Origin: a virus
IMG/VR virus record: IMGVR_UViG_3300045988_167691
Length of the DNA: 64,000 nt
Direction: 5' to 3' (one strand)
The notes under the pieces are model-generated. The model saw only the letters and a list, made by a program, of their open reading frames with translations. It was not told where the DNA came from and searched no databases. Shown in pieces: positions 13,300 to 41,234 of the stretch. The first letter of the stretch is position 1; the number at the start of each line of letters is the position of its first letter. A program made the translations under genes and the position numbers.

Positions 13300-13771
13300 A
13301 CTCTTTAAAATTTTTGTAATTAGCCATATAGTCTGCAATGAAATTGCCACATACAATAGGATCACTATAGTCTTTCTGGTGGCTTCTTATCCATTTTACG
13401 GAAACACGAAGTTTTCTATGCAACAACATTTCCGAAAATATAGCATCCCACAAATCCTGATTTTCTACATGAAGATTCTCCCTTGCCCAATCAAGGAACT
13501 TGTGACGAAACTGATTGGCAACATACTGGCTGTCGATATAGAAGGTTGCCTTTACATTCAAATTCTTTTTTATCGCTCGAAGTGCAAGAAGAATTGCTTC
13601 CGTTTCTCTTCTTCCTGTCGTAGTATAGGAACGTCCTTTGGTTATATGATATTCCTTGTCTTTCCATTTGATGTAAACGGCAGAACCTCCCAGTTTTTTG
13701 GGATGGTTAGCATTGCAACTTCCATCCGTCCAAACCTCAATGATCCGTGTTCCCTTTCGTTTATCGCTCAT
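13274..13771 (-). CDS. rnhA: ribonuclease HI
   Basis: IEVWTDGSC, ETEAILLAL, YIDSQYV, WIRSHQ and GNFIADYMA match the D-E-D-H-D catalytic pattern. Confidence 0.8.
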   Translation of the reverse strand: MSDKRKGTRIIEVWTDGSCNANHPKKLGGSAVYIKWKDKEYHITKGRSYTTTGRRETEAILLALRAIKKNLNVKATFYIDSQYVANQFRHKFLDWARENLHVENQDLWDAIFSEMLLHRKLRVSVKWIRSHQKDYSDPIVCGNFIADYMANYKNFKEYEKENHLQ

Positions 13772-20959: not shown

Positions 20960-21472
20960 TTAGAGAAGGCATTTCCTTCTTGCGTATTCCGCTATCAAAA
21001 TTCCATCTCTATCGGGGTGCTTGTCCTTGATTTCTGGGAACAGCCTTTTTCCTATATCAAGGGATGCCTTCTTCAATTCTTTAGTGCCTACAACCCCTTT
21101 AGGTAGCATTTCCTTTTGCCATTCTTTAGAGTCTATGAACATATAAGGAACATCATAAAGCTCCAATACGGTAAGTTCCGCTTCCAAAGCACGCATAGCA
21201 GAACATGTAGCATCAAATCTTGCCGGATTTTTCATGGGACGTTCCAAGACGGCCACACACAAACCATATCCCTTTAGAGTATGAATTACTTCGGCAAGTG
21301 CCGTTACGTTCACCCTTGACACATTCTTCTTTGCTTTTGTGTAATCCTGCCCAAATGTGATAGGTGTTTCCATGAACTCATAATAGGTCAGTTCTTTTCC
21401 TACTATGCCAATAGAACCGGTCACACCGTTGTCTATCCCTATGTAAAACTTCGATTCTGTTTTCTTGTTCAT
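20960..21472 (-). CDS. RuvC-like Holliday junction resolvase
   Basis: FYIGIDNGVTGSIGIV (N-terminal catalytic Asp strand) and C-terminal HPDRDGILIAEYARR. Confidence 0.6.
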   Translation of the reverse strand: MNKKTESKFYIGIDNGVTGSIGIVGKELTYYEFMETPITFGQDYTKAKKNVSRVNVTALAEVIHTLKGYGLCVAVLERPMKNPARFDATCSAMRALEAELTVLELYDVPYMFIDSKEWQKEMLPKGVVGTKELKKASLDIGKRLFPEIKDKHPDRDGILIAEYARRKCLL

Positions 21473-23880
21473 TGTTCAATACGGCTTATGCCGTTCTCCT
21501 TTACTATTTTAAGCGTTTTGCATGAAGCGTTTTCATTCGAAATATGAGTTGTAACAAGTATAGGAAACTGAATGAACTCCAATGCTTCTATCACGTCATA
21601 TAGGCTTTCTTTCGATAGTCCTTCTGTGATTTCATCAATGGATAGGAATTGCAATCCTCCCCATTTGTTCGTCTCGTTTATCATTCCTTGTATGGCTATA
21701 ATCAAAGCGATTTCCACCCTTGCACGCTCTCCGCCACTGTAATACCAGAAGTTTTCCGCCTCGTCCCTAACAACATAAGGCGTTATCTCTTCTTTTATGT
21801 CTCCGTCTGCTTTCGTCTTAAATCCTTCTATGACAATTCTAAGATCGCTGTTTTCTGCTTTCAGAATATTGTTTGCCCGAAGCTGGATATTCTTTAACTG
21901 TTCTATCGCAAGATACATCTTGAATGATTTGAATCTTCCTATCCACTCTTTCTTGCGAAACATTTCGTTTTCCAATTCCGTCATTTCCTTGTCATACCCT
22001 GCGATAGCAAGCATCATTTCTTCTATTTGCTTTTCCTGTGAAGAAGTATCAATAGAAGAAGGCGTTTCCTTTTCGATTTCCTTTATCTGTTTTTCCAGAC
22101 GTTTTACATCTTCTTTTCCGGTAGCTATGTTTTCTAAAAGCCCTTTGTTTCGCTTTTCAAGAATGGAAATATTGGACTTTTGAGATTCTATTTCACTTGT
22201 GATCTTATAGACAGCAGATGAAATTTCTTTTCCTGCTTCCCGGATTTTGTCAAGTTCATCCTCCTGTTCGTTTTTCACTTGAATGAAAGAAGAAATAAGG
22301 TCTTCGTATTCCTTTAGGGATTCATCCAAAGATGTTATTTCCCCGACAACTTCCTTTTCCTGTTTCCCTATTTTCTCTTTTTTCTTCTCTTCCTTTTCAA
22401 GCGTAGTGTCTTGAAGTGTCAAGAACTTATGCTTGCATTTAGGACACGTAATCGTCCCAGAAAGGCTTACAAGAACTTTCCGAAGAGACACTTTCAGTTC
22501 GTCATGGATTTTCAAAAGCTCTTCTTTTGTTTCCAAAATCTCATTCTGATCTTCTTTGGCTTTTCCAAGTTCTTTTTTGACGGATTCAATCACATCTTCT
22601 ATTTCCTTAGTAGAAGGAAGTTTCTTTTTCTTTTCTTCGGCTTCTCGAAGTTCTTCTTCCAAGACTTCAAGTGTTTTCTTTCCTTTGTCAATGTTTTTCT
22701 TGTTATAGTCAATATTGTATTTAGCAGAATCAATATCTTCTTTTAAAGACTTGATTTTACTTTCCACCCTTTCGATCCTTTCCTTTCGATCCGCTTCGAA
22801 GTCGAAATTAACAGCATCTTCTATCATTTGCCGCAATGCTTCTACACTCCCTTCCGCACGATCTCTTTTGCTTTGGATAACTGATTTCTTAGATGAAATT
22901 TCGTCCAGTTCCTTTTGTATAATATCCTTACTGCCATCCAAGAAGTCATAATTGATAAAACGACTTATGAGAGCCAATTTGTCCGTATTGGAACTTTTAA
23001 AGAACGACTTATAGTATTCCTTGCAAATAAGAAAATAACTTTTCAAATCTTCCGGTGAAATACCCATCCATGAAAGGATATAGTTGTTGCCGTCTTTTAC
23101 GGTAGCAAGACTGACTGACTCGCCATTTAACGACACATTAAGTTTGCTGCTTCCTTTTAAGGGCAAAATGCGCTCAATATGGAGAGTTTCTTTCCTTATG
23201 GGACATTTTATATCAAGTAATACTTTTGCTTCCTTCTCACCGTTTCTAATCAGTTTCTTGTCAATACTGCTTCGGTAGTTGTTACCTGTTATGGCAAAAT
23301 AAACTGCCTGTTGCATGGAAGAATTATGAGTAGGCGTATAGTTGTTCGTAACAAACATCCCGTCTTCTCCCGAAACGGTAATACATTGTTGCTCTTCCGC
23401 ACCCATACAAGTAAAAGAAACCATTTTTTTAGACGGTCTGCCAAGACATCCTGGAACTTCAAAAAACACTTCTTCATCTTTGCTTCTTTCCATGATCTTT
23501 CCAAGTGAAAGTACAGACCATTCCTCGCTTTGATTTGTTCTTACTTTCCATAGATGCTCTTTGTTACATTTTATTTCCGTACTGTCGGAAAAAGTAATCT
23601 TATATGCAATATCTATATCGTGAAACGGGATTGCTCTTACCGTTTGATAAGCACCGGAAGGATGAAGAACAATATCACCCACCTGAATATTCCTCATTTT
23701 TACAAACCCATTAGGGGTAAGAATATCGGAATCCATTGTCAACGCTTTACCGCTACCGTTACTGCCTTGATTGTCGTCTGTTTTATTCAATCCCACAAGT
23801 GCGGTTACCCCATCTTGAAATGTGTATTCAAAATGCTCGAATGACACAAAATTTGTTGCTTCAATCTTGATTGGCTTCAT
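21469..23880 (-). CDS. sbcC: SbcC/Rad50-like ATPase interrupted by a mini-intein
   Basis: GSNGSGK-[intein]-SSMQ Walker A, long coiled coil with CPKC zinc hook, YSGGERARV signature and FLSIDEITEG Walker B. An alternative start lies at 23901. Confidence 0.8.
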   Translation of the reverse strand: MKPIKIEATNFVSFEHFEYTFQDGVTALVGLNKTDDNQGSNGSGKALTMDSDILTPNGFVKMRNIQVGDIVLHPSGAYQTVRAIPFHDIDIAYKITFSDSTEIKCNKEHLWKVRTNQSEEWSVLSLGKIMERSKDEEVFFEVPGCLGRPSKKMVSFTCMGAEEQQCITVSGEDGMFVTNNYTPTHNSSMQQAVYFAITGNNYRSSIDKKLIRNGEKEAKVLLDIKCPIRKETLHIERILPLKGSSKLNVSLNGESVSLATVKDGNNYILSWMGISPEDLKSYFLICKEYYKSFFKSSNTDKLALISRFINYDFLDGSKDIIQKELDEISSKKSVIQSKRDRAEGSVEALRQMIEDAVNFDFEADRKERIERVESKIKSLKEDIDSAKYNIDYNKKNIDKGKKTLEVLEEELREAEEKKKKLPSTKEIEDVIESVKKELGKAKEDQNEILETKEELLKIHDELKVSLRKVLVSLSGTITCPKCKHKFLTLQDTTLEKEEKKKEKIGKQEKEVVGEITSLDESLKEYEDLISSFIQVKNEQEDELDKIREAGKEISSAVYKITSEIESQKSNISILEKRNKGLLENIATGKEDVKRLEKQIKEIEKETPSSIDTSSQEKQIEEMMLAIAGYDKEMTELENEMFRKKEWIGRFKSFKMYLAIEQLKNIQLRANNILKAENSDLRIVIEGFKTKADGDIKEEITPYVVRDEAENFWYYSGGERARVEIALIIAIQGMINETNKWGGLQFLSIDEITEGLSKESLYDVIEALEFIQFPILVTTHISNENASCKTLKIVKENGISRIEQ
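23323..23745 (-). mobile_element. class 3-type mini-intein (141 aa) in the SbcC P-loop
   Basis: Starts ALTMDSDILTPNG, so there is no Cys/Ser at position 1. Block B is NKEHLW, block F is QQCITV, and it ends TPTHN followed by S. This is the WCT signature. Confidence 0.75.
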
Positions 23881-24949
23881 CTTCCACCTCCTTGTTTTCA
23901 AATGTTACTTCTTTCTTTCTGAACTCTGAAAGGACATCTTTTTTAATCTTGTCAAAAAGTTCTGTTTCTTTGATTAGTTTCTTCCTTGCGGCAGGGAATC
24001 CGAATCCTATCTTTTCTTCCCCGTAATAGATGTACGTTCCTTTCTTTGTGAGTACACCTAAGTCCAATCCCATGTTAAGCATTTCCATCACCTTGTCAAT
24101 ACCTACACCAAAACGGATAACAATATTGCAAGTTTTCATAGGTGGAGCAACTTTGTTTTTCCTGCATGTGATCTTCACTTTGTTTGCAACGGACACTTCA
24201 CCTTCCTTATCAGAACCTACACGGGCAAGCTCAACCCTTTGACTTGCATAAAAAGGTATTGCAAATCCTCCCGGCGTAGTAGTGGCATTGCCATATCCGC
24301 CTATATTCGATCTTATCTGATTGATACAGAATAGAATGCACCCTGTTTGCTTGCAGATGTTTTTCAAGATATTTACCTGTGAGCTTAAAAGCCTTGCTGT
24401 AAGTCCTATGTGAGCATCTCCGGCTTCCCCGTTCAAAAGAGCGGTCGGGACAAGTCCTGCAATAGAATCAATCACCACCAATCCGATAGAAGGTTCATTG
24501 CACATTTCCTTTGCTATTTCTAACGTTTCCTCTGCCGTAGAAGGTTGGGAAAGGATAAACTTGTCAGGAGAAAGGTCTGCGCCAATAGCTCCCATGTATT
24601 TCGGATCAACTGCATTTTCTGTATCAAGATACCCTACCGCCATTCCTTGTTTTTGGATTTCGGTAGCAAGATGGAAAGCTATGCTTGTCTTGCCGGAAGA
24701 AAAGCCTCCGTAGGCTTCCACAATACGCCCTTTTGCCCATCCTCCGCCAAGTATTTCATCCAGCAGGAAAGAACCAGAATGTACGAACTCTATATCTTGC
24801 TTCTTCCCCGCTATGGCTTCCTTTCCAAACCTACTTTCAATCCGGCTTATAAGATCACTGAGACGGTTCGGTTTCTTTTCTTCTTTAGGTTGCTGCACTT
24901 CCCCAGTTACCGCTTCTTCCGTTTTTTTAGTTTCCTTTTTCTTCGCCAT
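23861..24949 (-). CDS. recA: RecA recombinase
   Basis: EAYGGFSSGKTSIAFH (Walker A), VVIDSIAGL (Walker B) and the RecA-like L1/L2 region. Confidence 0.85.
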   Translation of the reverse strand: MAKKKETKKTEEAVTGEVQQPKEEKKPNRLSDLISRIESRFGKEAIAGKKQDIEFVHSGSFLLDEILGGGWAKGRIVEAYGGFSSGKTSIAFHLATEIQKQGMAVGYLDTENAVDPKYMGAIGADLSPDKFILSQPSTAEETLEIAKEMCNEPSIGLVVIDSIAGLVPTALLNGEAGDAHIGLTARLLSSQVNILKNICKQTGCILFCINQIRSNIGGYGNATTTPGGFAIPFYASQRVELARVGSDKEGEVSVANKVKITCRKNKVAPPMKTCNIVIRFGVGIDKVMEMLNMGLDLGVLTKKGTYIYYGEEKIGFGFPAARKKLIKETELFDKIKKDVLSEFRKKEVTFENKEVEDEANQD

Positions 24950-25976
24950 ACATCAACTTGTCTAAAATTTCTTTTCCTTCTTTTTCGTCATATTCGTTTT
25001 CCTTACAAAAAGCAGAAAACCTTTCTTCTATGTCCTTTTTGTCAAGTGCCTTTACTTCTGTCAACATAGAATGTTTTTCTTCCACTTCCTTAAACTTTTT
25101 CTTGATATCTATGCCTTCTTTTGTAAAGACATCCTTATCAAAGGCATCAAGTGAAGATTGTTCTCCCCAGACTTCCACTCTTACACGGGCAGTAGGGTTC
25201 TCCTTTTTGAATTTCTTGATAAGTGACACTGCCTGTTTGTGGGGAGTTTCCCCCAAATCAATTTCCAGTTTCTTAAATACTTGTCCTTTTGTAGAAGAAA
25301 CAAGATCTACATTCAAATCCGAATCCAAAAGCCAGAAACCCTTCTTTTCATCTTCCCCGAAGTTGTTTTGTTGGACACTTCCTAAATGATAGATATTCTC
25401 TCCTACCCGTTGATAGTTATGATAGTGCCCCAAGTACACTTTTTTGAACATCTGGAACATGGAAGGTTTTAAAAGGTTGGACACTTCCGATCCGTCCATG
25501 TTCTTGCTTCCTGTGACCGCAAAATGTCCAAAGAGGATATTCTTCTTTCTTTTGTCCCCTATTTCTTCCAGTTCATCCAAAAGAATATCATCTGTAAAAA
25601 ACGGAAGAAAAAAACAATACACACCTTCTACTTGCATTCCGTCCAATTCTTCTACCAAAGTAAAAGACGGATGATATTTAAAAGGAGTAAGAAACGATTT
25701 CTTGCTTGTGTAGGATGTTTTGTCATGGTTGCCGGGAATACAGATCACATGGTGTCCGCGTTTGTCGTATTCTTCCAGGACATCATTCAATGTGGAAAGG
25801 CACACTTCTCTTTGCGATACTCTGTTATCAAAAATATCACCCAACCATATATGGGTTTGTATCTTTTTCTTTTCTGCCAAGTCAAGTTCTTCCAAAAGAA
25901 TATCTTTTATAATAGTGGCATTATCGGCAGTAAGATGATGATCCGTTGAAATTATAGCTAAATATTTGCTGTTCAT
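24927..25976 (-). CDS. sbcD: SbcD/Mre11-like nuclease (metallophosphoesterase)
   Basis: ISTDHH, WLGDIFD, PGNHD, FGHFAV and LGHYH. Start placed at MNSKYLAI. The track ORF extends to 26018. Confidence 0.75.
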   Translation of the reverse strand: MNSKYLAIISTDHHLTADNATIIKDILLEELDLAEKKKIQTHIWLGDIFDNRVSQREVCLSTLNDVLEEYDKRGHHVICIPGNHDKTSYTSKKSFLTPFKYHPSFTLVEELDGMQVEGVYCFFLPFFTDDILLDELEEIGDKRKKNILFGHFAVTGSKNMDGSEVSNLLKPSMFQMFKKVYLGHYHNYQRVGENIYHLGSVQQNNFGEDEKKGFWLLDSDLNVDLVSSTKGQVFKKLEIDLGETPHKQAVSLIKKFKKENPTARVRVEVWGEQSSLDAFDKDVFTKEGIDIKKKFKEVEEKHSMLTEVKALDKKDIEERFSAFCKENEYDEKEGKEILDKLMYGEEKGN

Positions 25977-26058
25977 GATCGAAATTGTTAGGAAAGGGGA
26001 GAACACAAAGTTCTCCATTCCCTTTCGGATTGATATATTAGAAAAACGAAAAGAAAAA

Positions 26059-28173: not shown

Positions 28174-30246
28174 TCACACTCCCAATTTTATAAATTGACT
28201 GTTTCCATTTGCTTGTATCACATATTCCTCTTTAAACCTATCAAAAGAAACCTTTCCAGTAAGCAGTAAGATGTTCTTCTTGCAACTTTGGATATATTCT
28301 TCTTTATCCATATAGTCGGCAGGGAATATCACCACACGAAGGAATTTGTAGTTGTTTTCAAGTAGAAGGCTGGCAAATGCCCCTGTTTTTGACTCCTTTT
28401 CTTCCACTTCCAACACATATCCTCCCACCATTGCCATTTTATAAGTAGAACCGTCATAGTTCTGCAAATCGTCCACATCGTAATATTCCGCAGTCTTTGC
28501 TTTCGGACGAAGGTATTCCTCTACCAATTTCTTGTAATCAAAGAAAGCGAAACCGGACTTGTTTTTCTGTTGCAAAAGCCACCACCAATCCTTACCTATC
28601 TTGTTTTTGCTGAAAGCAATGCTGTATTCGTCCTTTTCCCTATCTATCTTGATACGGTTCTTTTCTCGATATTTCCCAAGCATATATTCCCTTGCAGAGA
28701 AGATATTGGAAAATCCCCTTGTTTCTTTTATATCGTCAAAAGCACCTGAATAAATAAGGTTTTCAACAGTGGACTTATTAACAGAAGAACCTTTAAAGGA
28801 ATGACGGTCTACAAACTCTTCCAAAGAAAAATACTCTCCATTCTTTTCCCGTTCCTCAATGATCTGCTGTTGTGCTTTTTCTCCGACTTGTTGAGTGGCA
28901 TTAAGTGCCCAGTAAACACTATTGCTCTTTTTATCACCTACGATACCAACATCAGATTTGTTGATATTGACAGGTTTGATTTCAATCCCTTCCGTTTGGT
29001 TCATCTCATTAATATAACGAGGAAAATCATCTTTACTTGCACGAGATAAGGCAACCGACCAAAACTCCAACGGATAATGTACTTTCAGCCACAAGGAATT
29101 GTAAGCGTTAATAGCGTAAGCAGCAGCGTGGGATTTATTGAACGCATACAAACCAAATTTTTTCATTTGTTCCCAAAGTGCTTCTGCATACTCCTTCGTC
29201 ACTCCTTTATCTTTAAATTTGTTTACATAACCATCAACAAATTTTGGATGAATTTTTTCAACCTTATCTTTCTTTTTCTTCGCAATAGCTGCACGAGTGC
29301 CGTCCGCTTCTTCTTCTGTAAATCCAGCAAGAGTTTGAACTGCTTTGATTATCTGTTCTTGATATGTCCAGGTAGAATAAGTATCTTTCAATATTTCTTC
29401 TGCGCCAATAGGATATTCAGGTTCTTTTTCTCCATTTTTCAATGCAATATAATCCATGTGAAAACCGTTTTCCATTGGCCCAGGACGAAACAAGGAGAGT
29501 GCAGCAATCACATCATCCATATTTTTAGGCTTCATTTTCTGCGTGTAAGAAGAAAGTCCCTTTGCAGAGAATTGGAATATGTCGCTAAGCCAACCGTTTG
29601 CAAAATAGCGGTACACTTCTGGATCATCATATTCTATATCTGTATAGAGATTGATCTTCTTTCCCGTATTCTTTTCTATCAAGACAAGAATATCGGTAAA
29701 TTTATCAAGCTGCTCGATTCCCAGAATATCTTCTTTCAAAAAGCCTGCCTCATCCATTTCTCCGCCTTCCCATTCGCTAACGACAAGATCGTCCACTTTT
29801 CTTACAGGACACCACTCGTACATTGTCTTTTCCTTTGGGAAAATCATCATGGCACAAGCATGAATGGAAGCTGCCTTTTGTTGCCCAAGAAGAAGGAAAA
29901 CGACATTCATCATTTCGGGATATTTGTTCACGAATTGTGCTATTTCTTCCTTTCTACAGGCAAGTCTTAGAAAATCTTCCTCCGTCTTCACATCTTCTAT
30001 CATTTTGGAAATTCTTCTAAGCGTAGGAATGGAAGCTCCATAAATCTTTCCTACGTCATTTATAGCTTGTTTTATCTGCAAGGTAGTGTATGTACCTACA
30101 GAACAAACCTGTGTTTCTCCAAAACGTTCTTCCATGTATTTTTTAACTGCCGGACGATACTCTCCCGGCACATCTGTATCAATGTCTAACTCTCCCCCTT
30201 GTCCGAAAACAAGGGGGTAATTAATCAGGGAGCGATCCAGACACAA
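28174..30246 (-). CDS. dnaE: DNA polymerase III alpha (DnaE), C-terminal fragment: end of PHP, palm, fingers, OB
   Basis: ELDIDTDV (PDxDxDF motif), SVGTYTTLQ, LFRPGPM and FNKSHAAAYA. The only in-frame start is a TTG. Confidence 0.8.
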   Translation of the reverse strand: MCLDRSLINYPLVFGQGGELDIDTDVPGEYRPAVKKYMEERFGETQVCSVGTYTTLQIKQAINDVGKIYGASIPTLRRISKMIEDVKTEEDFLRLACRKEEIAQFVNKYPEMMNVVFLLLGQQKAASIHACAMMIFPKEKTMYEWCPVRKVDDLVVSEWEGGEMDEAGFLKEDILGIEQLDKFTDILVLIEKNTGKKINLYTDIEYDDPEVYRYFANGWLSDIFQFSAKGLSSYTQKMKPKNMDDVIAALSLFRPGPMENGFHMDYIALKNGEKEPEYPIGAEEILKDTYSTWTYQEQIIKAVQTLAGFTEEEADGTRAAIAKKKKDKVEKIHPKFVDGYVNKFKDKGVTKEYAEALWEQMKKFGLYAFNKSHAAAYAINAYNSLWLKVHYPLEFWSVALSRASKDDFPRYINEMNQTEGIEIKPVNINKSDVGIVGDKKSNSVYWALNATQQVGEKAQQQIIEEREKNGEYFSLEEFVDRHSFKGSSVNKSTVENLIYSGAFDDIKETRGFSNIFSAREYMLGKYREKNRIKIDREKDEYSIAFSKNKIGKDWWWLLQQKNKSGFAFFDYKKLVEEYLRPKAKTAEYYDVDDLQNYDGSTYKMAMVGGYVLEVEEKESKTGAFASLLLENNYKFLRVVIFPADYMDKEEYIQSCKKNILLLTGKVSFDRFKEEYVIQANGNSQFIKLGV

Positions 30247-30254
30247 ATCGCTCC
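30194..30254 (-). other. two adjacent GC-rich hairpins at the 5' end of the DnaE C-fragment
   Basis: - sense GGAGCGAT-uuguguCUGG-ATCGCUCC (8 bp, with the TTG start in the loop) and CCCCCUUGU-uuucgg-ACAAGGGGG (9 bp). Confidence 0.8.
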
Positions 30255-30303
30255 ACTGTTATTTTTTTAAGTTCTTTAATTTTCATATTTTCTGTTCTAT
30301 CTA

Positions 30304-31854
30304 TTAAACCAATATATCGTCACCTACTTTTAAATTTTTGGTAGTAACATTGATAGGAAGAATCTTTTTAGTTCCATCTTCCAGTGTCACTTCGTAAACT
30401 TCCTGCTTTTCAAAGTGTCCCAAACGTCCTTTTGTCAAAAATCTTTCAAAAAGTAAGTTAAACTTCAAAGGATGCGTATTTATGATACCAAAAAGATAAG
30501 AAATTAGTGAACCTGATGCACTTCCACGACCGGCACCTAACAAAATGTTGTTTTCCTTACACCAATTTACAATATCTCTTAGAACCAAAAAATAATCAAT
30601 AACACCACCAAATTTAATAATGGATGATTCCCTTTCAATCCGTTCTACTAATACATCTTCCGAATAGTCTTCTAAAAGTTCCGGCTTATTCTCTATGCCT
30701 TCGTAGATAAGGGAATCAAACATATCTTCGTTGGATTCATACTTTTCTTTTTCCTCTTTTGTCATTTCGTACCGAGGAAGATGCCTGCTGTCAGTAGGAA
30801 TTTCAAAGTTGCAACTTTCTGCAATCATATCCATGTTTTCCCGTGCCTTTAAATAAAAGGCTTCCCCTACAGACTGATCCCCAAAAAGAGAAAGAAGCTC
30901 TTCCATATAGGTCACCTCATCCTTGAAATACTGATTGTAGGATTTATGGTTGACCTTCTTTCCTATCTTGTTTACAGTTTCCCTTAAAATGTAATATTCC
31001 GGTTCAATATAGAAGGCATCGCAAAGTGCTACAGGTTTCATTTTCGACTTGTAAAAGGCTTCAAAGTTTGTAAGGTATTCTGTATCTCTGTTGAACTTTG
31101 CATATTCCACTGTATCAGCTTGCCAAAATACGTTATGCTTGTTTCTTAAAAGAATAGGAACATCAGTATAATCAATTGTTTTTGGATCAAAAACAATAAA
31201 CACATCCTCCGTATGCTCCGATATGTCTTTAGGGGTTATGAATTTCCCGGAAGAATCACAATTGATTATTTTATTGATGGCAAGAAGATGCTGCCACCCC
31301 TTTTCGTTTTGGGCATAAATTTTGTAAGTGAACGAAATGTCTTTTTTTTCATCTTTTACAGGGACTTCCAACCCAAACACAGGAATGATCCCTACAGATT
31401 TGCAAGCATTCTGAAATTTCAATGCCCCTGCAAGTGTCCCTTTTTCCACTATACCAAGACGTTCGATTCCTAAGAATTTGGATTTCTTTACCCAATCGGA
31501 GTATAGGCTTGTTCCGTTCAGAAGCTCAAACGAACCATGTACACCCAAAAAATTGGAAGAAAGCCCTGTCACTTCGCTTTGCCCTCTCCATTTTACACGA
31601 TTCAGCTTAGGGTCACGTTCCTGTCCTTTCTCTATAGTGTACCATACGCCACCAAAACGAAAGACATATCCATCGTATTCGGTAGTTTCATTATCCCACC
31701 GGAAGTCTTCATCAAAGAAATATCCATCGTCATTCGAAGAAAAAAGCTCATATGTCTTTCCATCAAATGACACAGTATAGTTTTCCCTGTCAGAAGTGTA
31801 TTGTATTGTATTGGAAGAAAGATATTCTTCCAACTCGTTAAACAGATTTTCCAT
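30304..31854 (-). CDS. dnaE: DNA polymerase III alpha (DnaE), N-terminal fragment: PHP domain plus a 40-aa non-DnaE tail
   Basis: GVHGSFELLNG, IIPVFGLEV, GAGRGSASGSLISY and LLFERFLTKGR. This is followed by LGHFEKQEVYEVTLEDGTKKILPINVTTKNLKVGDDILV and a stop. Confidence 0.8.
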   Translation of the reverse strand: MENLFNELEEYLSSNTIQYTSDRENYTVSFDGKTYELFSSNDDGYFFDEDFRWDNETTEYDGYVFRFGGVWYTIEKGQERDPKLNRVKWRGQSEVTGLSSNFLGVHGSFELLNGTSLYSDWVKKSKFLGIERLGIVEKGTLAGALKFQNACKSVGIIPVFGLEVPVKDEKKDISFTYKIYAQNEKGWQHLLAINKIINCDSSGKFITPKDISEHTEDVFIVFDPKTIDYTDVPILLRNKHNVFWQADTVEYAKFNRDTEYLTNFEAFYKSKMKPVALCDAFYIEPEYYILRETVNKIGKKVNHKSYNQYFKDEVTYMEELLSLFGDQSVGEAFYLKARENMDMIAESCNFEIPTDSRHLPRYEMTKEEKEKYESNEDMFDSLIYEGIENKPELLEDYSEDVLVERIERESSIIKFGGVIDYFLVLRDIVNWCKENNILLGAGRGSASGSLISYLFGIINTHPLKFNLLFERFLTKGRLGHFEKQEVYEVTLEDGTKKILPINVTTKNLKVGDDILV

Positions 31855-33577: not shown

Positions 33578-34582
33578 CTACCACAACTTTTTAATTTTAG
33601 ATACATAAAAATTAATAGGATCATAGAGATTGCTTAGCACATCGTCCAAATAATCTATATCCATATCTCCTGGATCAACCCCTGGCTTATAAAGATAGGC
33701 TATCTTTGTGTTGAATTTCTTTCCCAACATAAGTCCTGCGCTTTTCGATTCTTCCACAGTTGCATCATCATACATAAGGATCACATTCTTGATACCTTTT
33801 CTTTCCAAGTAGGAGATTTGTTCCTTGCTGATGCTATTTCCAAACGTAAAAACACATTTCAAACTGTTGCAATCCCAAAGCTGCAAAAGATTGTCTATTC
33901 CTACCTTGTCAAACAACCCTTCCACTATGATAACATCTTTGACCGAAGAAGAAAGCTCGTCAAAGCCTCCCAGTATCTTCGTGAAGTTCGTTCCTATGCT
34001 GTTTTCGTATCTTAAATGAGGCTTAGTTCCTGTTTCCTTTGCCCTTTCCAAATCCTTTTTATGCCATTCTTTAGAATACCTACTCCTTCCAAGCCATCCT
34101 ACCAGCTTACCATCCATCTTCACTTTGAAAATGATATAGTTTCGCAAGTTCTTTTCAAGAACGGAATTTGTTTCGGAAGGCTCAAAAAGATCGTAATGGC
34201 ATTTCTTAAAACCCCTTCCATCAAGATAACTGTCTGATAATATTCTTTTAAGACGGAAAGGAAGTTTCGGAATAGGAAGTTCTTCTTCCTCGTTTTCCTC
34301 TTTCTCATCTTTCAAAGGAGTAAGTTTTGTGCTTATGGAATTTTGATATTCCATCCGTATAAGGTCTTTTCTTCCTACCTTTTCCAGAAAATCCTTGAAA
34401 GATGTTTTTGTTCCACATTTCCAGCAATGGAAAACTCCCCCGTGCACATTTATCTTGACACCCCATTTCTTTTCCTTTCCACAATAAGGACAAGGCATCT
34501 CTTTATTTGAAAGCCACCCTTGCGAACCGAATATTCTAAGTCCGAACACAGCCTTTACTTCTTCTTCGTCAATCCGTATCAC
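33578..34582 (-). CDS. dnaG: DNA primase (zinc finger plus Toprim)
   Basis: CPYCGKEKKW...HCWKCG zinc ribbon, IIVEGLFDKVG (Toprim Glu) and ILMYDDATV (DxD). Confidence 0.75.
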   Translation of the reverse strand: MIRIDEEEVKAVFGLRIFGSQGWLSNKEMPCPYCGKEKKWGVKINVHGGVFHCWKCGTKTSFKDFLEKVGRKDLIRMEYQNSISTKLTPLKDEKEENEEEELPIPKLPFRLKRILSDSYLDGRGFKKCHYDLFEPSETNSVLEKNLRNYIIFKVKMDGKLVGWLGRSRYSKEWHKKDLERAKETGTKPHLRYENSIGTNFTKILGGFDELSSSVKDVIIVEGLFDKVGIDNLLQLWDCNSLKCVFTFGNSISKEQISYLERKGIKNVILMYDDATVEESKSAGLMLGKKFNTKIAYLYKPGVDPGDMDIDYLDDVLSNLYDPINFYVSKIKKLW

Positions 34583-34608: not shown

Positions 34609-37134
34609 TTAAATGCTTTCCATCTTTTGTTCGTCAGACTTTTTCTTCCTTGCCGTCTTTTTCGCTTCCTTCCTTTCAGATATTTGGTTGTACATCTCCA
34701 TTGTCCGTCCCCTGTGATAGAACCTGCGCTTGTCATAATTGGTGGCAATCGTTATCACTTCTTGACTTTCTTTGTAGTCACGCAATTTGTCCACATAAAT
34801 ACGTGCCGTGCCGTTGGACTTTTCCTCTATTGTCATATTTAACGTGAACACAAAGGAAAAAGGTTTTACAAGTGTCTTGTCTCCTTCCGTATAGGAACGG
34901 TCTATTACTTTGTCAGGATTGTTCCATACTTCAAAAGGCACATCACTTGTTTGTGTTGCTGTGATAATAGGAGCTTCAATCTCGTCGGCAAGGTTCTTTA
35001 GAAGCTGCGCACAAGTCTGTAGCTTTTCTTTCTTATGATCGGGATCACTGTCTATCTTTTTGGAAATGCCGGTCTTTACCAAATCCAATGAATCCAAAAC
35101 TACCAACCCAGGAAAACGCCCGTGTGTATTGAAATAGTCGTAGCATAGCTGCCTTACATCGCTCATAGAAGCCTGTCCGAACTTCTTGAAACCGTACACC
35201 TCTATATCTGAACCGGCTTCTTTAATTTCTTCAATCGCCTTTTCGATCTTTTTCTTATCGTTGGGATCAATGTTGCCTGACTTGATATTGGAATAGGACT
35301 GGTTTGACCAAAGCTGATCATATATCTGCATACAGGCTTTAACGCCACCTTCCAATTGAATATGAAGAACCGGGACACCTCTAAGGGCAGCAGAATAGCC
35401 GTGCCATTTTAATACAGTCGTGTTGTGAGTAACGATAAAATCATTTGTAAGAAAAAGTCCTTCTTTTCCTGACACTTTTATGCACTGCATTTCTTTTATG
35501 CCAATATATTCAACGGACACAATTCTTCTTTCAACAAAATTCTTTTTCTTAGGATTTATCTCTCTTTCGTGTTTCCTTGAAAGATGAAATAAATCTAATC
35601 CTTTAGGAGGGGTGATTCTCAATCTATATCTGTATTTACAAATAACCCTTTCTCCTTTTTTGTTTACATAAGAAGCTCTTTTTGGTTCTGATATTTTACA
35701 CAAACATCCTAATGACCTTGCAATAAAAGTAGCGTCTTCTATTAATTGTTTAGAAGATAGAGAAAGTTCTATTTGTCCTGTTTTTTCAACATACCCGTCT
35801 GTATCTAAAAGCCCTCTAAGAACCTCTAATCGAACATTCTTATTGTTGAAAATATAATCTTTTGGAATAAACTTTTCGTGAGAAAGTTTCCCAAAAAGTC
35901 CGTATTTTTTTAAGTAATAATGAAAATTATGTTCACTTTCCCCTTTATTAATCCTATACGCATACCTTGCTACATATTTAAGGTATATCTGTTCTGGGAA
36001 CTTCAATTTTTCCATAATTTCATTGTCTGGCAACGTTACAGTTAAATTACCAGCTTTATCAGAAAAACTTCCATCGCCTAATAAAACGCCTAACGTATAA
36101 GGATCAATAAAAACTTCTTTTTCTCCTAAATCAACGCCTTCCACCAATGGTATAGAAAAACGAGGACGCGGATAAGAACCGTATCTTACAATATTGTTTT
36201 TAGTAAGATATTTTTGTCCGTTATGGTGTCCGCCAAATTTAATTCCTTTCTCCATCATTTCCGACAAAGGCATAGTTTCATAACCTTTTGAGTTGTGATA
36301 ATTATCCCATATCGTCCAAAGATGATCTTTGCTACAATCAACAAAACTTCCATCTGCAAAAGTTACTCGATACGCTTTCTTTCTTCCTTGAGGATATACG
36401 CCAACTATTGTTTGAGTACCGCCTTTTCTATCACAAATAATATCCCCTACCTTAGCATCTTTCATCAAAATATAACCAGTAGGAGTGAGAATTTTGCTGT
36501 CCAAAGTCAACGCTTTACCCGTACCACTGCGAGCAATCCAAAGCGTTGTGTCCCCTATTTCCATGCCACCGAAAGATACATCGTCCAACCTGTCGATTCC
36601 AAAAGGAATTTTTACTGGCTTTTCCGTTATCGTAGCAGCTTCCATGCGTCTTTCAATCATACGTTGCTGGAAACCCCCGAAAACAGACTGAAAACCCCCT
36701 GATTTGGAACGAAAAGACATCTCCACAATCCTTTGCGATTCTTCCGCGTTCACACGGATAGCTTCTTCCTTCTTTCCTTCTTCGTAAAGGTCATGTACCC
36801 TTTTGGAAAGAAGTTCGAACTCCGTCTCTTTCACAAACGATTGAAGTTGGTCTATTGCTATTTCTCTGTCTATCAGATTGGCTTTCTTTATTTCCTTTGC
36901 AGCATCCAACACAAAGTCATTATCAGAAAATTTTTGACAGATAGCACCAAGCGCGGGAAGCTTCCCCTTTTCTCTATATTGATCGACAGCTTCTCTTAGT
37001 ATGAATTTGTATCCAGACCATTCTTTAGGGATCAATTCATATTTCAGATGCTCCGATGCTATGCACATTATGACTTCATCCGAAAACATCAATTTAAATA
37101 TTTCGGACATAAAGCCAGGATTCAATTTATTCAC
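34609..37134 (-). CDS. dnaB: DnaB-type replicative helicase interrupted by an intein
   Basis: TTLWIARSGTGK-[intein]-TTVLKW Walker A and LVVLDSLDLV Walker B-like. RecA-fold C-terminal domain. Confidence 0.8.
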   Translation of the reverse strand: MNKLNPGFMSEIFKLMFSDEVIMCIASEHLKYELIPKEWSGYKFILREAVDQYREKGKLPALGAICQKFSDNDFVLDAAKEIKKANLIDREIAIDQLQSFVKETEFELLSKRVHDLYEEGKKEEAIRVNAEESQRIVEMSFRSKSGGFQSVFGGFQQRMIERRMEAATITEKPVKIPFGIDRLDDVSFGGMEIGDTTLWIARSGTGKALTLDSKILTPTGYILMKDAKVGDIICDRKGGTQTIVGVYPQGRKKAYRVTFADGSFVDCSKDHLWTIWDNYHNSKGYETMPLSEMMEKGIKFGGHHNGQKYLTKNNIVRYGSYPRPRFSIPLVEGVDLGEKEVFIDPYTLGVLLGDGSFSDKAGNLTVTLPDNEIMEKLKFPEQIYLKYVARYAYRINKGESEHNFHYYLKKYGLFGKLSHEKFIPKDYIFNNKNVRLEVLRGLLDTDGYVEKTGQIELSLSSKQLIEDATFIARSLGCLCKISEPKRASYVNKKGERVICKYRYRLRITPPKGLDLFHLSRKHEREINPKKKNFVERRIVSVEYIGIKEMQCIKVSGKEGLFLTNDFIVTHNTTVLKWHGYSAALRGVPVLHIQLEGGVKACMQIYDQLWSNQSYSNIKSGNIDPNDKKKIEKAIEEIKEAGSDIEVYGFKKFGQASMSDVRQLCYDYFNTHGRFPGLVVLDSLDLVKTGISKKIDSDPDHKKEKLQTCAQLLKNLADEIEAPIITATQTSDVPFEVWNNPDKVIDRSYTEGDKTLVKPFSFVFTLNMTIEEKSNGTARIYVDKLRDYKESQEVITIATNYDKRRFYHRGRTMEMYNQISERKEAKKTARKKKSDEQKMESI
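35422..36513 (-). mobile_element. class 3-type intein (364 aa) with a LAGLIDADG endonuclease, in the DnaB P-loop
   Basis: Starts ALTLDSKILTPTG. Block B is SKDHLW. LAGLIDADG motifs are LGVLLGDGS and LRGLLDTDGY. Block F is MQCIKV, and it ends IVTHN followed by T. Confidence 0.8.
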
Positions 37135-37145
37135 GATACCAAATT

Positions 37146-39245
37146 TTAAACCAGATTAATGCTAAAACCACTGCTTTCACCTTCCTCACGTAAGGTATTT
37201 ATTGCAAACCAGCTTGAGAGGCATAGATCGTCATGTCCTGAACTTGCTTCCAGTTTTCCTTTATCGCTTCTAAAAGTGATAGAAGAAAATTCACTAAACA
37301 TCAATTCCACCTTTTCCCTTGTCTCGCCCTCCTTATAAGGCGTTCTGATTTGTCCTCTTTCAAACATAGCAGACAAAGACGGAAGTCCGGTGTACAAGTC
37401 CTTCTTGTTTCCCTCCGTAGTGGTAAATTGTTCGATATTGGTAAGTCCTCTTTCTCTTGCAAGTGCTGACAATATCCCTTGGAATCCGTTAGCCTCGCAC
37501 ACGATCTTGTCAGGCTTATACAGACGATTGAAAAGAACAATCTTGTCCACCTGCTCATTGTGAGACATACCTTTTGCCCTGAAATAATTCACAAGATGGT
37601 AATTACCAGAAAAGTCAACTCCCCAAACGGAATAGACGGTGTAGTCAGCACCAATATTACCGGAAACAGCAAAGTCGCATCCCACTACCACCCTTTGAAG
37701 TTCGAACGGATAAAACTCTATGCTGTCCGCAAAGGAAACCTTATCCATGCCGGTAGTTGCCCTTCTAAGATATTCATATGGGAAAATAGTTGAGTTGTCC
37801 GAAATAGGAATCACAAGGTACTCTCGTGCAAACACAATAGAACCAAGTTCTGTCCTTTTCCTTTTTATATCTTCAAACATATACCTGTCAGGAGCAAGAG
37901 GTCGTCCGTCCGGGAATATGATAGGATATTCAAACAGATAAAAACGCTTATCTCCCTTAATGACATTGTACAATTCGTTAGGAGCAGTAGAATAAGGCGT
38001 ACCTGACACAATCAGATATCCGTAAGGCTCAACAATAGGAGTAATAGTCCCTCTAAATGTTTCCTTTAGCTTTTCTCTTTGCTCATCACTGTAAAGAGAA
38101 CTTTCATCTGGCATATCATCTATGATTGCTGCTCCAACGTGCAAACCACGAATAAAACCATCCTTACCACGAACATGAAGAATCGCACCATTTTCACCTT
38201 CTATTGCCGTTTCTCCAAGTTTAGCCTTGCCGTTCGGATCAAGTTTTTCCTTCAATATATCATTGGTGGATATTTCCTCTATAATCTTGTTCACATGCAC
38301 TTTTGCAAGTGTCATTGTATTTGTGATCATAGCGGTTTCTTTCCGGTTCTTGTTGTCTATCGTATCCCCTCCATACAACATAGGACGTGTATAGGAGTAT
38401 AACCTCCATAAAGGGAACGCATAGCACCACTCGAAGCTGTTGTGCATTACTGTGCCGTCAGCGAGCAAAAACTTATGATCTCCGTCACAAGCAAAACCGT
38501 AATACTCACCTTCATCCAGTAAGGTTATAAAGATTTCCGTTTTCTTGAATTTCCCATCTCTTGAAACTCTGTAACCTTCATATTTAGTGCCTCTCCTTTG
38601 GTTCATTTCGGCGATTTCAACAGGAATGTAAGTACCGTCAGCAAGACAAAGGATGTGTCCTTCGCTTACTATATAGCTATCTCCGCCTTTCTGTCTTACT
38701 TCGTACATATAGGTTTCTCCGTGATGCAGTTCCAAGACATTGCGACATTTCAAGTCTTGTCCCATCACCTTGTCACCTACTCTTATATCCTGGACTTTTT
38801 TTAACGAACCATCTGCCATAACTATCAAAGTATCAGGAGAAACGCACTTTCCACTACTTCGCGAACACAAATAACTACTCCAAGGAAATAGCTGCGTAAG
38901 ATTCCCCCATTCCAAGTTTCGCCATCCCATATTGAAATTAGAAAGGACTGTCGCCTTGAAATAATTAAAAGACAGAATCCTTAGATTTTCATCCATTGAA
39001 GCAAACAGATTGTCCACATACCCCAGCTTTTCCGTGTCAAGCGAACGTCCAAAATTCATGGCATACTCGGTCTGATTGATTATAGTGTCTAACATTTTAT
39101 CCAAATCCTTTCTGCTGCCACCAGAAAACAAGGATCGCACAGTAGTGGAAGGAAGTCGGTCTATAATATCGTCCACCGTTGCAAACAACCTTTTTGACTG
39201 TAGCTCGGTAAGTATTCCTCCTTTTGAATTATATATGACTGCCAT
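37146..39245 (-). CDS. terL: terminase large subunit interrupted by a mini-intein
   Basis: CSRSSGK-[intein]-SFEW Walker A, AAIIDDMPDE Walker B-like and VVGCDFAVS nuclease Asp. Confidence 0.75.
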   Translation of the reverse strand: MAVIYNSKGGILTELQSKRLFATVDDIIDRLPSTTVRSLFSGGSRKDLDKMLDTIINQTEYAMNFGRSLDTEKLGYVDNLFASMDENLRILSFNYFKATVLSNFNMGWRNLEWGNLTQLFPWSSYLCSRSSGKCVSPDTLIVMADGSLKKVQDIRVGDKVMGQDLKCRNVLELHHGETYMYEVRQKGGDSYIVSEGHILCLADGTYIPVEIAEMNQRRGTKYEGYRVSRDGKFKKTEIFITLLDEGEYYGFACDGDHKFLLADGTVMHNSFEWCYAFPLWRLYSYTRPMLYGGDTIDNKNRKETAMITNTMTLAKVHVNKIIEEISTNDILKEKLDPNGKAKLGETAIEGENGAILHVRGKDGFIRGLHVGAAIIDDMPDESSLYSDEQREKLKETFRGTITPIVEPYGYLIVSGTPYSTAPNELYNVIKGDKRFYLFEYPIIFPDGRPLAPDRYMFEDIKRKRTELGSIVFAREYLVIPISDNSTIFPYEYLRRATTGMDKVSFADSIEFYPFELQRVVVGCDFAVSGNIGADYTVYSVWGVDFSGNYHLVNYFRAKGMSHNEQVDKIVLFNRLYKPDKIVCEANGFQGILSALARERGLTNIEQFTTTEGNKKDLYTGLPSLSAMFERGQIRTPYKEGETREKVELMFSEFSSITFRSDKGKLEASSGHDDLCLSSWFAINTLREEGESSGFSINLV
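38439..38846 (-). mobile_element. class 1 mini-intein (136 aa) in the TerL P-loop
   Basis: Starts CVSPDTLIVMADG, has block B SEGHILCL, and ends GTVMHN followed by S. Confidence 0.8.
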
Positions 39246-39904: not shown

Positions 39905-41234
39905 TACATCAGGTAACTATATATTAGTTTATACTAACACATATTAGTTAATAAATTTCTTAACTGGGTTATACTCAAACCCTGTATAGGGTGGCATTAC
40001 TGCATCCCCTTTTACTTTTCTCATGATGTTATAACTTCCGTTGACATCAGCATTAAGTAAGATCCCATCTTTTGTTTTAAAAAGTCCTCTTTTTACTCTT
40101 TTACCAACGTAAGTATCATGATGTTCCACAGATTCTAAATCAAAAGAACTGCATTTTGACGTATGAGATTCGTTTACTTCAACAAATCTTAGCCCTTGTC
40201 TTTCTGATTTATACCTTAACATTGATATGAACATATCGAAAGGAATTGAAACAAAATTCTGATTGTTTCTTTTCCCAAGATTGGATTCTTGCTTCCATCC
40301 GTCATTATGTCCGACTATCAATGTTGTTATATTATCTTCCAAACAAGTATTGATTATTTCTTTACTTGCCTTGTGAAGATAATCCTTTGCTTTGTTGTTT
40401 CTCTTTCTTGTAAGAGACATTAACCGTCTTGAATTTTCTTTTCCATTTACTTTTTTTAATTGTTGTTGAATTTTCGATCTTTTCTTGTTGTAATACTGAT
40501 TGATGGATTTTAATTTCCTTCCATCAATCAAAACAGGTTTATTGTTTGTATTAGTTACAATAGAAGCTAAATTGTTTACACCTAAATCAATAGACATGAC
40601 CCTATTGTTATCGGGAAGCTGTTCTTTTACAGAAGATTCATAAACAACTTCTATAGAATAACAATCTGCTTTAGGAATAAACCGAACTTGTTTTACAGAA
40701 CCTTCTTTGCAATTCGTTTTCAAAGGTGACAGCCCTTCTTTCTTTGGAAAGAAAATGAAGTTTCCTTTGTGTTTAAACTGAGCATAAGAATAAGAAAATA
40801 CATTTCTACCTTTTGTTTTATGTTTATATCTCGGAAACTTAGGACAACCGGTAAACTTTTTGTTATCCCGTTTCCAAGACTTGATAGCAGAAAAATAAGA
40901 TTTTAGGTTCTTGTCTAAAGCCATAAGAACTTGTTGAGAAGAATTTGCACTCATTGCTCTATAGTCTATATTATCCTGTTTTCTAAACATACTATCAAGA
41001 TCAGTATATCTTATCCACTTTCCCGTACTAAGAAACTCTTTCTTTATTGTATATAAAGCAGCATTATACAAGTTCTTAGACAAGAAACAAATTCGATCTA
41101 AATCTTTGTATCTCTTATCATTTACAGAAATAATATGTTGTTCTACCAAATACATAGTGCAAATTTAAATAGAATATTTGAAATTTCCTATTTAAAATCT
41201 ACAACTTTAAATATTTCTGTAAACTGGTATATAG
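39905..41234 (-). mobile_element. IS200/IS605-family-like element carrying only tnpB (approximate ends)
   Basis: tnpB plus about 40 nt and about 80 nt of flanks fills the whole gap between two unrelated genes. An 11-bp inverted match (gtaactatata at 39912-39922, tatatagttac at 41228-41238) lies near both ends. Confidence 0.45.
39944..41155 (-). CDS. tnpB: TnpB (IS605 OrfB-type RNA-guided nuclease family)
   Basis: SIDLGVNNLA (RuvC-I Asp), LIVGHNDGWKQESNLGKRNNQNF, VNESHTSKCS and LNADVNGSYNIMRK (RuvC-III Asp). Confidence 0.8.
   Translation of the reverse strand: MYLVEQHIISVNDKRYKDLDRICFLSKNLYNAALYTIKKEFLSTGKWIRYTDLDSMFRKQDNIDYRAMSANSSQQVLMALDKNLKSYFSAIKSWKRDNKKFTGCPKFPRYKHKTKGRNVFSYSYAQFKHKGNFIFFPKKEGLSPLKTNCKEGSVKQVRFIPKADCYSIEVVYESSVKEQLPDNNRVMSIDLGVNNLASIVTNTNNKPVLIDGRKLKSINQYYNKKRSKIQQQLKKVNGKENSRRLMSLTRKRNNKAKDYLHKASKEIINTCLEDNITTLIVGHNDGWKQESNLGKRNNQNFVSIPFDMFISMLRYKSERQGLRFVEVNESHTSKCSSFDLESVEHHDTYVGKRVKRGLFKTKDGILLNADVNGSYNIMRKVKGDAVMPPYTGFEYNPVKKFIN

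Follow-up and report, generated by a model that had tools for sequence, protein, structure and literature searches.

How do two ATPases of a single phage remain functional when the coding sequence of the nucleotide-binding loop is interrupted in each, and how did related inserts come to occupy both loops? These questions are raised by the window analysed here, a stretch of 64,000 nucleotides (nt) of IMG/VR virus record IMGVR_UViG_3300045988_167691, from a member of a human-gut phage family with genomes of about 100-105 kb whose nearest isolates infect Bacteroidota. An initial annotation, made from the sequence alone, placed one insert in a DnaB-like gene at 35422-36513 and another in an SbcC-like gene at 23323-23745, and read the two as a pair of class 3 inteins. 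The coordinates proved exact, with the correction that they can be read solely on the minus strand, on which both intein-bearing genes lie; the plus-strand translation of the same positions is full of stops, and that reading was rejected. Each insert splits a Walker A motif (P-loop) between the invariant Lys and the following Ser/Thr. Chance is excluded as the source of the likeness between the inserts by their match to one another, their matches to solved inteins and the contiguous sequence of intein-free homologues. In our assessment both are very probably class 3 inteins lodged in the P-loops of two phage ATPases, the DnaB copy homing and the SbcC copy old and devoid of an endonuclease. Anatomy, homology, fold, population pattern and selection were observed, and it is on this basis that we infer splicing chemistry and endonuclease activity.

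The DnaB-like replicative helicase precursor (34609-37134, minus strand) comprises 841 amino acids (aa), made up of a 477-aa extein and a 364-aa intein. Its C-extein matches Pfam DnaB_C, phrog_19 (DnaB-like helicase) was matched at 1.8e-38, and a primase-like open reading frame (ORF; 33578-34582) adjoins the gene. The insert (35422-36513, minus strand) begins with ALTLDSKILTPTG and ends with FIVTHN; it lies between GTGK and T, a DnaB-b type site, and its flanks read ARSGTGK and TTVLKW. Between its blocks B and F is a homing endonuclease domain (35539-36228, minus strand; about aa 96-325) with two LAGLIDADG motifs, LLGDGSF (aa 144-150, 36064-36084) and LLDTDGYV (aa 235-242, 35788-35811), in both of which the acidic residue is kept. 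Pfam LAGLIDADG_3 (2.2e-9) and Hom_end (2.5e-6) were matched, as was PI-PfuI (1dq3) at 9.7e-6; the motifs and the Pfam matches agree with the annotated retention of a LAGLIDADG endonuclease in this copy. In 70 related contigs DnaB is an uninterrupted 477-aa protein with SGTGK-TT running without a gap, and an intein-free allele reads AGCGGCACAGGAAAA/ACGACTGTATTG across the junction, the slash marking the site of insertion.

The second host gene (21469-23880, minus strand) encodes an 803-aa precursor of an SbcC/Rad50-like ATPase, composed of a 662-aa extein and a 141-aa intein; its likely true start is the ATG at 23880, and the ORF finder extends the frame to a TTG at 23901. The spliced extein matched phrog_77, 'SbcC-like subunit of palindrome specific endonuclease', at 1.2e-49 and contains a Walker A motif (SNGSGK-S), a CPKC zinc hook, an SGGE signature, a Walker B motif (LSIDE) and the TH of an H-loop, all of these being conserved in Cbastvirus homologues that have no intein. 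The Pfam SMC_N match was weak (0.0019), and members of the protein's cluster are named 'DNA repair exonuclease SbcCD ATPase subunit' by JGI. Two genes upstream, with a RecA homologue between, is an SbcD/Mre11-like nuclease gene (24927-26018, minus strand; Pfam Metallophos 3e-8, phrog_100 SbcD-like subunit 1e-44), which is followed by a RuvC-like ORF. The phrog_77 match, the zinc hook and the nearby SbcD bear out the annotated identity of the host as an SbcC/Rad50-type ATPase. Its insert (23323-23745, minus strand) begins with ALTMDSDILTPNG, ends with YTPTHN and lies between GSGK and S, with flanks GSNGSGK and SSMQQA. It encodes 141 aa without an endonuclease, a mini version as had been described. 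The corresponding sequence is contiguous, with no insert, in the SbcC proteins of Cellulophaga phage phi13:1 and Tenacibaculum phage Larrie (SNGSGK-SG), and SNGSGK-SS runs without a gap both in four IMG/VR relatives of 44-48% identity (L064, L065, L068, L072) and in a 93%-identical, intein-free allele, P0276, on a contig of the same synteny (L151).

Class 3 inteins are defined by the absence of a nucleophile at position 1 together with Trp B12, Cys F4 and Thr G5 (PMC3196547, PMC5050341), the Cys F4 forming a class-specific branched intermediate (PMC3196547, PMC5050341, PMC5222942), and insertion into a P-loop between Lys and Ser/Thr is a 'classic' intein site (PMC5050341). Common to both inserts are Ala1, His64-Leu-Trp66, a Cys within ..QCI.. 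and a terminal Thr-His-Asn followed by Thr or Ser. In the DnaB intein these are Ala1 (36511-36513), His64, Trp66 (36316-36318), Cys344 at F4 (35482-35484), Thr362 (35428-35430) and Asn364 (35422-35424), with Thr at +1; in the SbcC intein they are Ala1 (23743-23745), His64, Trp66 (23548-23550), Cys121 at F4 (23383-23385), Thr139 (23329-23331) and Asn141 (23323-23325), with Ser at +1; this mini-intein has three further Cys residues, Cys60, Cys100 and Cys113. HMMER placed T139-H140-N141 of the SbcC intein on T137-H138-N139 of DnaBi1 of Mycobacterium smegmatis (Msm DnaBi1); H64 and W66 align to H65 and W67 of that intein, and C121 to C118, its demonstrated initiating nucleophile (PMC6195587). C344 of the DnaB intein aligns to Cys107, the engineered Cys of gp41-1_WCT. 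The elements listed in the initial annotation are all in place: an Ala start without an N-terminal nucleophile, seen in both translations; Trp two residues after the block B His (DHLW, EHLW); a Cys at block F; and a Thr-His-Asn end, THN/T in DnaB and THN/S in SbcC. Ala1 is found in all 66 SbcC alleles and 8 DnaB alleles, which sets them apart from class 1.

An intein with no position-1 nucleophile, a His-Asn end and a +1 nucleophile also fits what a 2026 preprint (bioRxiv 10.64898/2026.07.21.739742) scored as 'class 2', and the +1 Ser or Thr could on that view attack the N-terminal junction directly, leaving the block F Cys a structural or regulatory part only. We consider such splicing improbable here. 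Class 2 inteins, which have been recorded in KlbA genes only, do not have the Trp-Cys-Thr triad (PMC3196547), which is complete in both inserts; in over 200 relatives Trp B12, Cys F4 and Thr G5 vary little or not at all; C121 falls on a proven nucleophile; and in tested class 3 inteins the +1 residue cannot replace Cys F4 (PMC5222942).

The fold and the wider family point the same way as the motifs. Searches of PDB sequences returned the engineered Trp-Cys-Thr form of gp41-1 (6riz) at E 5.5e-12 to 8.8e-14 and wild-type gp41-1 (6qaz) at 7.5e-10 and 8.6e-11 for the two inserts, followed by the class 3 DnaB inteins of M. smegmatis and M. chimaera; Pfam Hint models matched the SbcC mini-intein below threshold only. 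The SbcC insert was modelled with AlphaFold2 from an alignment of 20 sequences, and the model had a mean predicted local distance difference test score of 97.1. Compared with the PDB by Foldseek, it was closest to 6bs8, the class 3 M. smegmatis DnaB intein (5e-9; template modelling score 0.76/0.85), then to MchDnaB-1 and then to gp41-1, with 44 intein or Hedgehog matches at E ≤ 1e-3. Among 20 diverse mini-inteins, G13, H64, W66, C121, T139, H140 and N141 are the only invariant columns. A word-index homologue search with the mini-intein alone found two near-identical fragments only, relatives of 35-45% identity being beyond its reach, and an exhaustive phmmer search over 1.84 billion representative proteins yielded 6363 matches at E ≤ 1e-3. 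In the best 150 of these, HLW, xCI and THN are present in almost every aligned intein, most inteins lie directly after GxGK, and position 1 at 213 aligned intein N-termini is Ala in 146 cases and Pro in 27. By these comparisons both inserts appear to be members of a class 3 clade that is very large and for the most part unannotated.

Class 3 inteins are reportedly, according to Tori and Perler, a monophyletic clade. In bootstrapped quartets over 63 columns, with the window's own two class 1 inteins (described below) as outgroups, a window intein was joined to Msm DnaBi1, and gp41-1 to the outgroup, in 65-95% of bootstraps for eleven of twelve quartets; the remaining one (SbcC intein, P0052, UvrD outgroup) stood at 50%. 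The initial annotation had raised a grouping with class 1 inteins as one result that would count against it, and the quartets mostly put the window inteins with Msm DnaBi1, not gp41-1. An arrangement in which gp41-1 is nested within the class 3 clade, making class 3 non-monophyletic, was considered and found unsupported, the rooted quartets mostly favouring the window inteins plus Msm DnaBi1. With the triad, the 150 nearest relatives, the fold and most of the quartets in agreement, the class 3 assignment holds, and the window inteins are likely members of the class 3 clade.

If both inserts splice by the class 3 route, the attack on the peptide bond before Ala1 would come from the Cys of block F (C344 in DnaB, C121 in SbcC), which the block B His would position together with Trp B12 and Thr G5, and would generate a thioester branch on the intein. 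The +1 Thr of DnaB or Ser of SbcC, which is the Mg-binding residue of the mature P-loop, would then take over the N-extein; cyclisation of the terminal Asn would release the intein, and an O-to-N shift would restore GxGK[T/S]. Since the ATPase site is split until splicing, the unspliced host protein is expected to be inactive. The SbcC copy would have lost its endonuclease, having descended from a full-length intein at the same SbcC site, would have become almost fixed in the phage clade and would be kept splicing-competent by selection on SbcC function. While in place, the mini-intein would split the target of any related endonuclease.

The distribution of the two inteins in the phage population is consistent with these separate histories. 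The 141-aa mini-intein is present in 66 of 66 close IMG/VR contigs, which fall into two clades (94-99% and about 80% protein identity), and Ala1, HLW, QQCI, PTHN and the +1 SS are invariant across 48 distinct SbcC intein sequences. The ratio of nonsynonymous to synonymous divergence (dN/dS) is 0.07 for intein and extein alike, within and between clades, and synonymous divergence (dS) between the clades is 1.7 for the intein versus 2.1 for the extein. Divergence in step with the gene, under equal constraint, indicates that this intein is old, vertically inherited and constrained like its host gene, as would be expected if SbcC function depends on splicing.

The DnaB intein is found in 7 of 77 related contigs; the other 70 are intein-free, one of them with a 100%-identical extein. 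In three carriers (L145, L146, L148) the exteins are about 80% identical to that of the window at the DNA level and the inteins 99.9-100% identical, with identity rising to 0.9-0.98 in the 90-180 nt beside the intein. Intein-free alleles carry three or four synonymous differences just 5′ of the junction. A near-identical intein in exteins of about 80% identity, together with the raised identity of the flanks, argues for recent homing with co-conversion, and the DnaB intein appears to be spreading now among related gut phages by endonuclease-driven homing, its endonuclease being presumably active. The copy in L147 (418-1509) is 93% identical to that of the window. All 25 amino-acid differences between them are confined to residues 81-231, in the first half of the endonuclease; the Hedgehog/intein (HINT) parts of the two inteins have zero nucleotide differences, so that dN/dS is incomputable; this pattern suggests recombination within the DnaB intein.

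Several points weigh against the reading of the inserts as active class 3 inteins, one homing and one long resident. Splicing, a branched intermediate at block F and DNA cleavage by the endonuclease are each inferred. By raw sequence score, the closest solved structure to the SbcC insert is the class 1 intein gp41-1 (7.5e-10 versus 2.5e-5 for Msm DnaBi1). In an unrooted neighbour-joining tree gp41-1 fell among the sequences with the Trp-Cys-Thr triad, quartets with a second class-1-like sequence (P0032 intein 2) gave no resolved topology, and the quartet and neighbour-joining analyses are weak, with only 63-102 columns. Fixation of the mini-intein is not absolute: one SbcC allele from the same 90% cluster is intein-free, with 662 aa, and differs in nucleotide sequence chiefly within about 25 nt at the site. 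Finally, grafting Trp-Cys-Thr onto gp41-1 gave no splicing intein (PMC7664689), so the triad alone is no guarantee of class 3 chemistry.

That failed graft, the missing N-terminal nucleophile of both inserts and the precedent of Arth_1007, a natural class-3-like intein that is a pseudogene (PMC3196547), could all be accommodated if the inserts were derived from class 1 inteins that had lost Cys1 and the ability to splice, leaving DnaB and SbcC inactive or present as precursor only. We think this very unlikely. With 141 or 364 aa in its P-loop, a replicative helicase would lose its ATPase function, and the DnaB intein spreads into intact genes, which would be impossible for a lethal insert. Over a dS of about 2 the SbcC intein has kept the dN/dS of its extein, with its catalytic residues invariant in the 48 sequences, and both window inteins have the Cys F4 that Arth_1007 does not.

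What, then, is the relationship between the two copies? The DnaB and SbcC inserts matched one another at 3e-20 in the N-terminal part (37% identity) and at 2e-10 in the C-terminal part (47%), and are about 43% identical on 104 HINT columns. The description of the two as clear paralogues stands at the level of the family; they are not nearest relatives, since in rankings of 143 on the HINT columns the DnaB intein takes 27th place among relatives of the SbcC intein, and the SbcC intein 75th place among those of the DnaB intein. With the spliced SbcC extein as query, relatives of 43-48% identity were found either as empty alleles of about 660 aa or as proteins of 1020-1029 aa. The longer proteins of sister phages (P0180, P0188, P0202) carry class 3 inteins of 361-363 aa with LAGLIDADG at the same K/SS site, and the cluster of P0188 holds both lengths. 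The SbcC site is therefore known in three states, empty, with a full-length intein and with the mini-intein. The nearest full-length relative of the mini-intein is the SbcC intein of P0202, with 52% identity over the N-terminal part versus 37% to the DnaB intein, and the mini-intein aligns as the P0202 intein minus its endonuclease, with short remnants FEVP and GCLGRP; Cys F4 is invariant in this alignment. By this comparison the mini-intein is what is left of a full-length intein of the SbcC site, not of the DnaB copy.

Compared over their whole length, the full-length SbcC inteins share 45-48% identity with the window DnaB intein, 51-53% with the DnaB intein of P0011 and 40-43% with the Snf2 P-loop intein of P0071. 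The window itself has a Snf2-like helicase gene (13761-15449, minus strand) whose P-loop, SVGTGKSL, is intact; in its homologue P0071 (2e-109) that P-loop contains a class 3 intein of 352 aa, one of the nearest relatives of the window DnaB intein at 57% on HINT columns. The intein family seems to have moved between the P-loops of different ATPases, although not recently in this genome, and full-length identities of 45-53% make an older switch between the SbcC, DnaB and Snf2 sites likely.

A recent move would require the DnaB intein of this genome to have been copied into the SbcC P-loop by extein switching and then to have lost its endonuclease. The homology of the two inserts and the uncommon ALT[LM]DS start common to both would fit such a copy, as would the 12 nt 5′ of the two sites, of which 10 are identical (GGTACGGGTAAA vs GGTAGCGGTAAA), and class 3 inteins have been proposed to switch exteins from one nucleotide-binding site to another (bioRxiv 10.1101/2025.01.02.630785). 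However, an identity of only about 43% on HINT columns, with the ranks given above, and the closer likeness of the mini-intein to SbcC-resident full-length inteins led us to reject a recent pair formed within the genome, and the mini-intein is older than the split of the two clades (dS of about 2), the DnaB intein being a recent arrival. No likeness exists 3′ of the junctions. We regard a recent origin of the mini-intein in this genome as extremely unlikely. Action of the DnaB endonuclease on the SbcC site was likewise considered and has no support, the 3′ side being unlike and the SbcC site occupied. Descent of the mini-intein from a full-length SbcC-site intein remains the preferred account.

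The window contains further inteins. A class 1 mini-intein of 136 aa (38439-38846, minus strand) lies in the P-loop of the large terminase (ORF 37146-39245); it reads CVSPDT...TVMHN followed by S, at RSSGK/S, and matched Pfam Hom_end_hint at 5.5e-20. A fourth intein (11790-12851, minus strand; ORF 10398-12935) has 354 aa, Cys1 and a LAGLIDADG/Hom_end domain. It reads CLGKDT...TITHN followed by SGKT and occupies the P-loop of a UvrD-like helicase one position earlier (ATAG/SGKT); it is related to the terminase intein at 1.4e-22.

Among relatives of the two class 3 inteins, many metagenomic ATPases (P0004, P0020, P0022, P0031, P0033, P0046, P0111) have two class 3 inteins within one P-loop, with mini-exteins of only 3-6 residues between them, for example THN/SGTGK/ALASEE and THN/CGK/AQPFTS, and several proteins have three or more inteins of this kind. 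Cys1 and Trp B12 are combined in natural inteins of P0033 (217-358), P0094, P0025 and P0016; those of P0033 and P0025 also have Cys F4 and Thr-His-Asn, and the alignments of P0094 and P0016 cover N-terminal halves. Such inteins could represent intermediates between class 1 and class 3, or forms with two nucleophiles.

The DNA polymerase III alpha gene of the window is also interrupted, by a 225-nt insert (30199-30423, minus strand) with four stops that lies between FERFLTKGR and GGELDIDTD and separates two ORFs in the same frame (30304-31854 and 28174-30246). In 76 related contigs, DnaE was uninterrupted in 43, carried the 225-nt insert in 25 and carried a 1.1-kb version in two (L203, L218). 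The longer insert holds a 283-aa ORF that looks GIY-YIG-like by eye and had no Pfam match. A recognised group I intron was rejected, with no Rfam match at E ≤ 1; a homing endonuclease gene may have left this gene in pieces, or the insert may be an intron of an unrecognised kind. Elsewhere, a 403-aa ORF (39944-41155, minus strand) just downstream of an exonuclease-like gene resembles IS200/IS605-type TnpB/OrfB by eye, and a DUF805b RNA (RF02914; 6601-6635, minus strand; 55.1 bits, E 5.5e-13) is the sole Rfam match above gathering score in the window.

The best-known counterparts of the window inserts are the DnaB-b class 3 inteins, the type examples of the class (PMC6195587, PMC3196547), from mycobacteriophage Bethlehem, M. 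smegmatis (DnaBi1), M. leprae and M. chimaera (DnaB1). They occupy the same host family as the window DnaB intein, are inserted, like those of the window, between the P-loop Lys and the +1 Ser/Thr, and share with both inserts Ala1, His B10, Trp B12, Cys F4 and Thr G5-His-Asn as well as the predicted fold, 6bs8, 6rix and 6riy being among the top matches. The differences are considerable: identity to Msm DnaBi1 is only 31% on HINT columns, block B of the window inteins is SKDH or NKEH and not the DxxH of mycobacterial inteins, and the host is a gut phage of about 100 kb related to Bacteroidota phages, not an actinobacterium or actinophage. The class 1 intein gp41-1, from a cyanophage-like metagenomic helicase (6qaz), is the best PDB sequence match for both inserts and resembles them in its 35-36% identity on HINT columns and its terminal Thr-His-Asn; unlike them, it is naturally split and has Cys1, Phe at B12 and Asp at F4. 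Its engineered Trp-Cys-Thr form (6riz) does not splice, and the window inteins, in contrast, are natural and under purifying selection.

At the SbcC site the closest parallel is a set of viral 'Rad50-like AAA+ ATPase-Hint' fusions (bioRxiv 10.64898/2026.07.21.739742), inteins, some with homing endonucleases, in Rad50/SbcC-type ATPases. That preprint scored only position 1, His-Asn and +1, calling nucleophile-less inteins 'class 2'; the Trp-Cys-Thr triad went unscored and the insertion site is not stated. It reads the endonuclease as a replacement for Mre11, whereas the window phage has a separate SbcD gene. A second parallel is extein switching in actinophages, in which related class 3 LAGLIDADG inteins occupy different nucleotide-binding sites, those of terminase and Cas4 (bioRxiv 10.1101/2025.01.02.630785). 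Here, similarly, related inteins occupy SbcC, DnaB and Snf2 with 40-53% full-length identity, but the divergence is much deeper and no recent switch can be demonstrated. The same survey lists class 3 inteins in only four actinophage exteins and makes no mention of SbcC. A literature search for SbcC or Rad50 inteins by name found no paper using these terms in the library searched, and the mycobacteriophage, actinophage and bacterial/archaeal surveys consulted do not mention SbcC or Rad50 (PMC5050341 and bioRxiv 10.1101/2025.01.02.630785 among them). The annotation's remark that the SbcC P-loop is not a commonly cited host site is accurate in that the site is rarely written about, but the July 2026 preprint includes Rad50-like ATPase-Hint fusions of viruses, and public metagenomes contain well over a thousand such sequences.

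Class 3 inteins and P-loop insertion between Lys and Ser/Thr were already established, and the mechanism is not new. What the two inserts add is further class 3 members, with a little-documented host site in SbcC, and a clear contrast between a homing and a fixed copy. The SbcC/Rad50 Walker A motif is a recurrent class 3 site, abundant in gut metagenomes (clusters of 658, 829 and 260 sequences), in clusters annotated merely as 'SbcCD ATPase subunit'. Surveys that label every nucleophile-less intein 'class 2' should check for the Trp-Cys-Thr triad, the mark of a class whose size and diversity, by the exhaustive search, go far beyond the few dozen curated inteins. Small natural class 3 mini-inteins of this kind (141 aa, Ser at +1) are candidate parts for protein engineering.

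A wider, more tentative possibility, which we would not yet favour, is that one endonuclease-bearing class 3 family has moved repeatedly between the SbcC, DnaB and Snf2 Walker A loops within one gut-phage group, the SbcC site being caught empty, with a full-length intein and with an endonuclease-less one. If so, relatives that combine Cys1 with the triad, and gp41-1, could supply natural intermediates for the origin of class 3, and would address whether class 3 arose by divergence from class 1 or by convergence, the latter having been argued after the failed gp41-1 graft. In a bolder variant still, the long-retained mini-intein would switch the SbcCD nuclease of the phage according to redox state or timing. 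A single phage population that carries both a homing intein and a long-fixed mini-intein of one family provides a natural system for the study of the intein life cycle.

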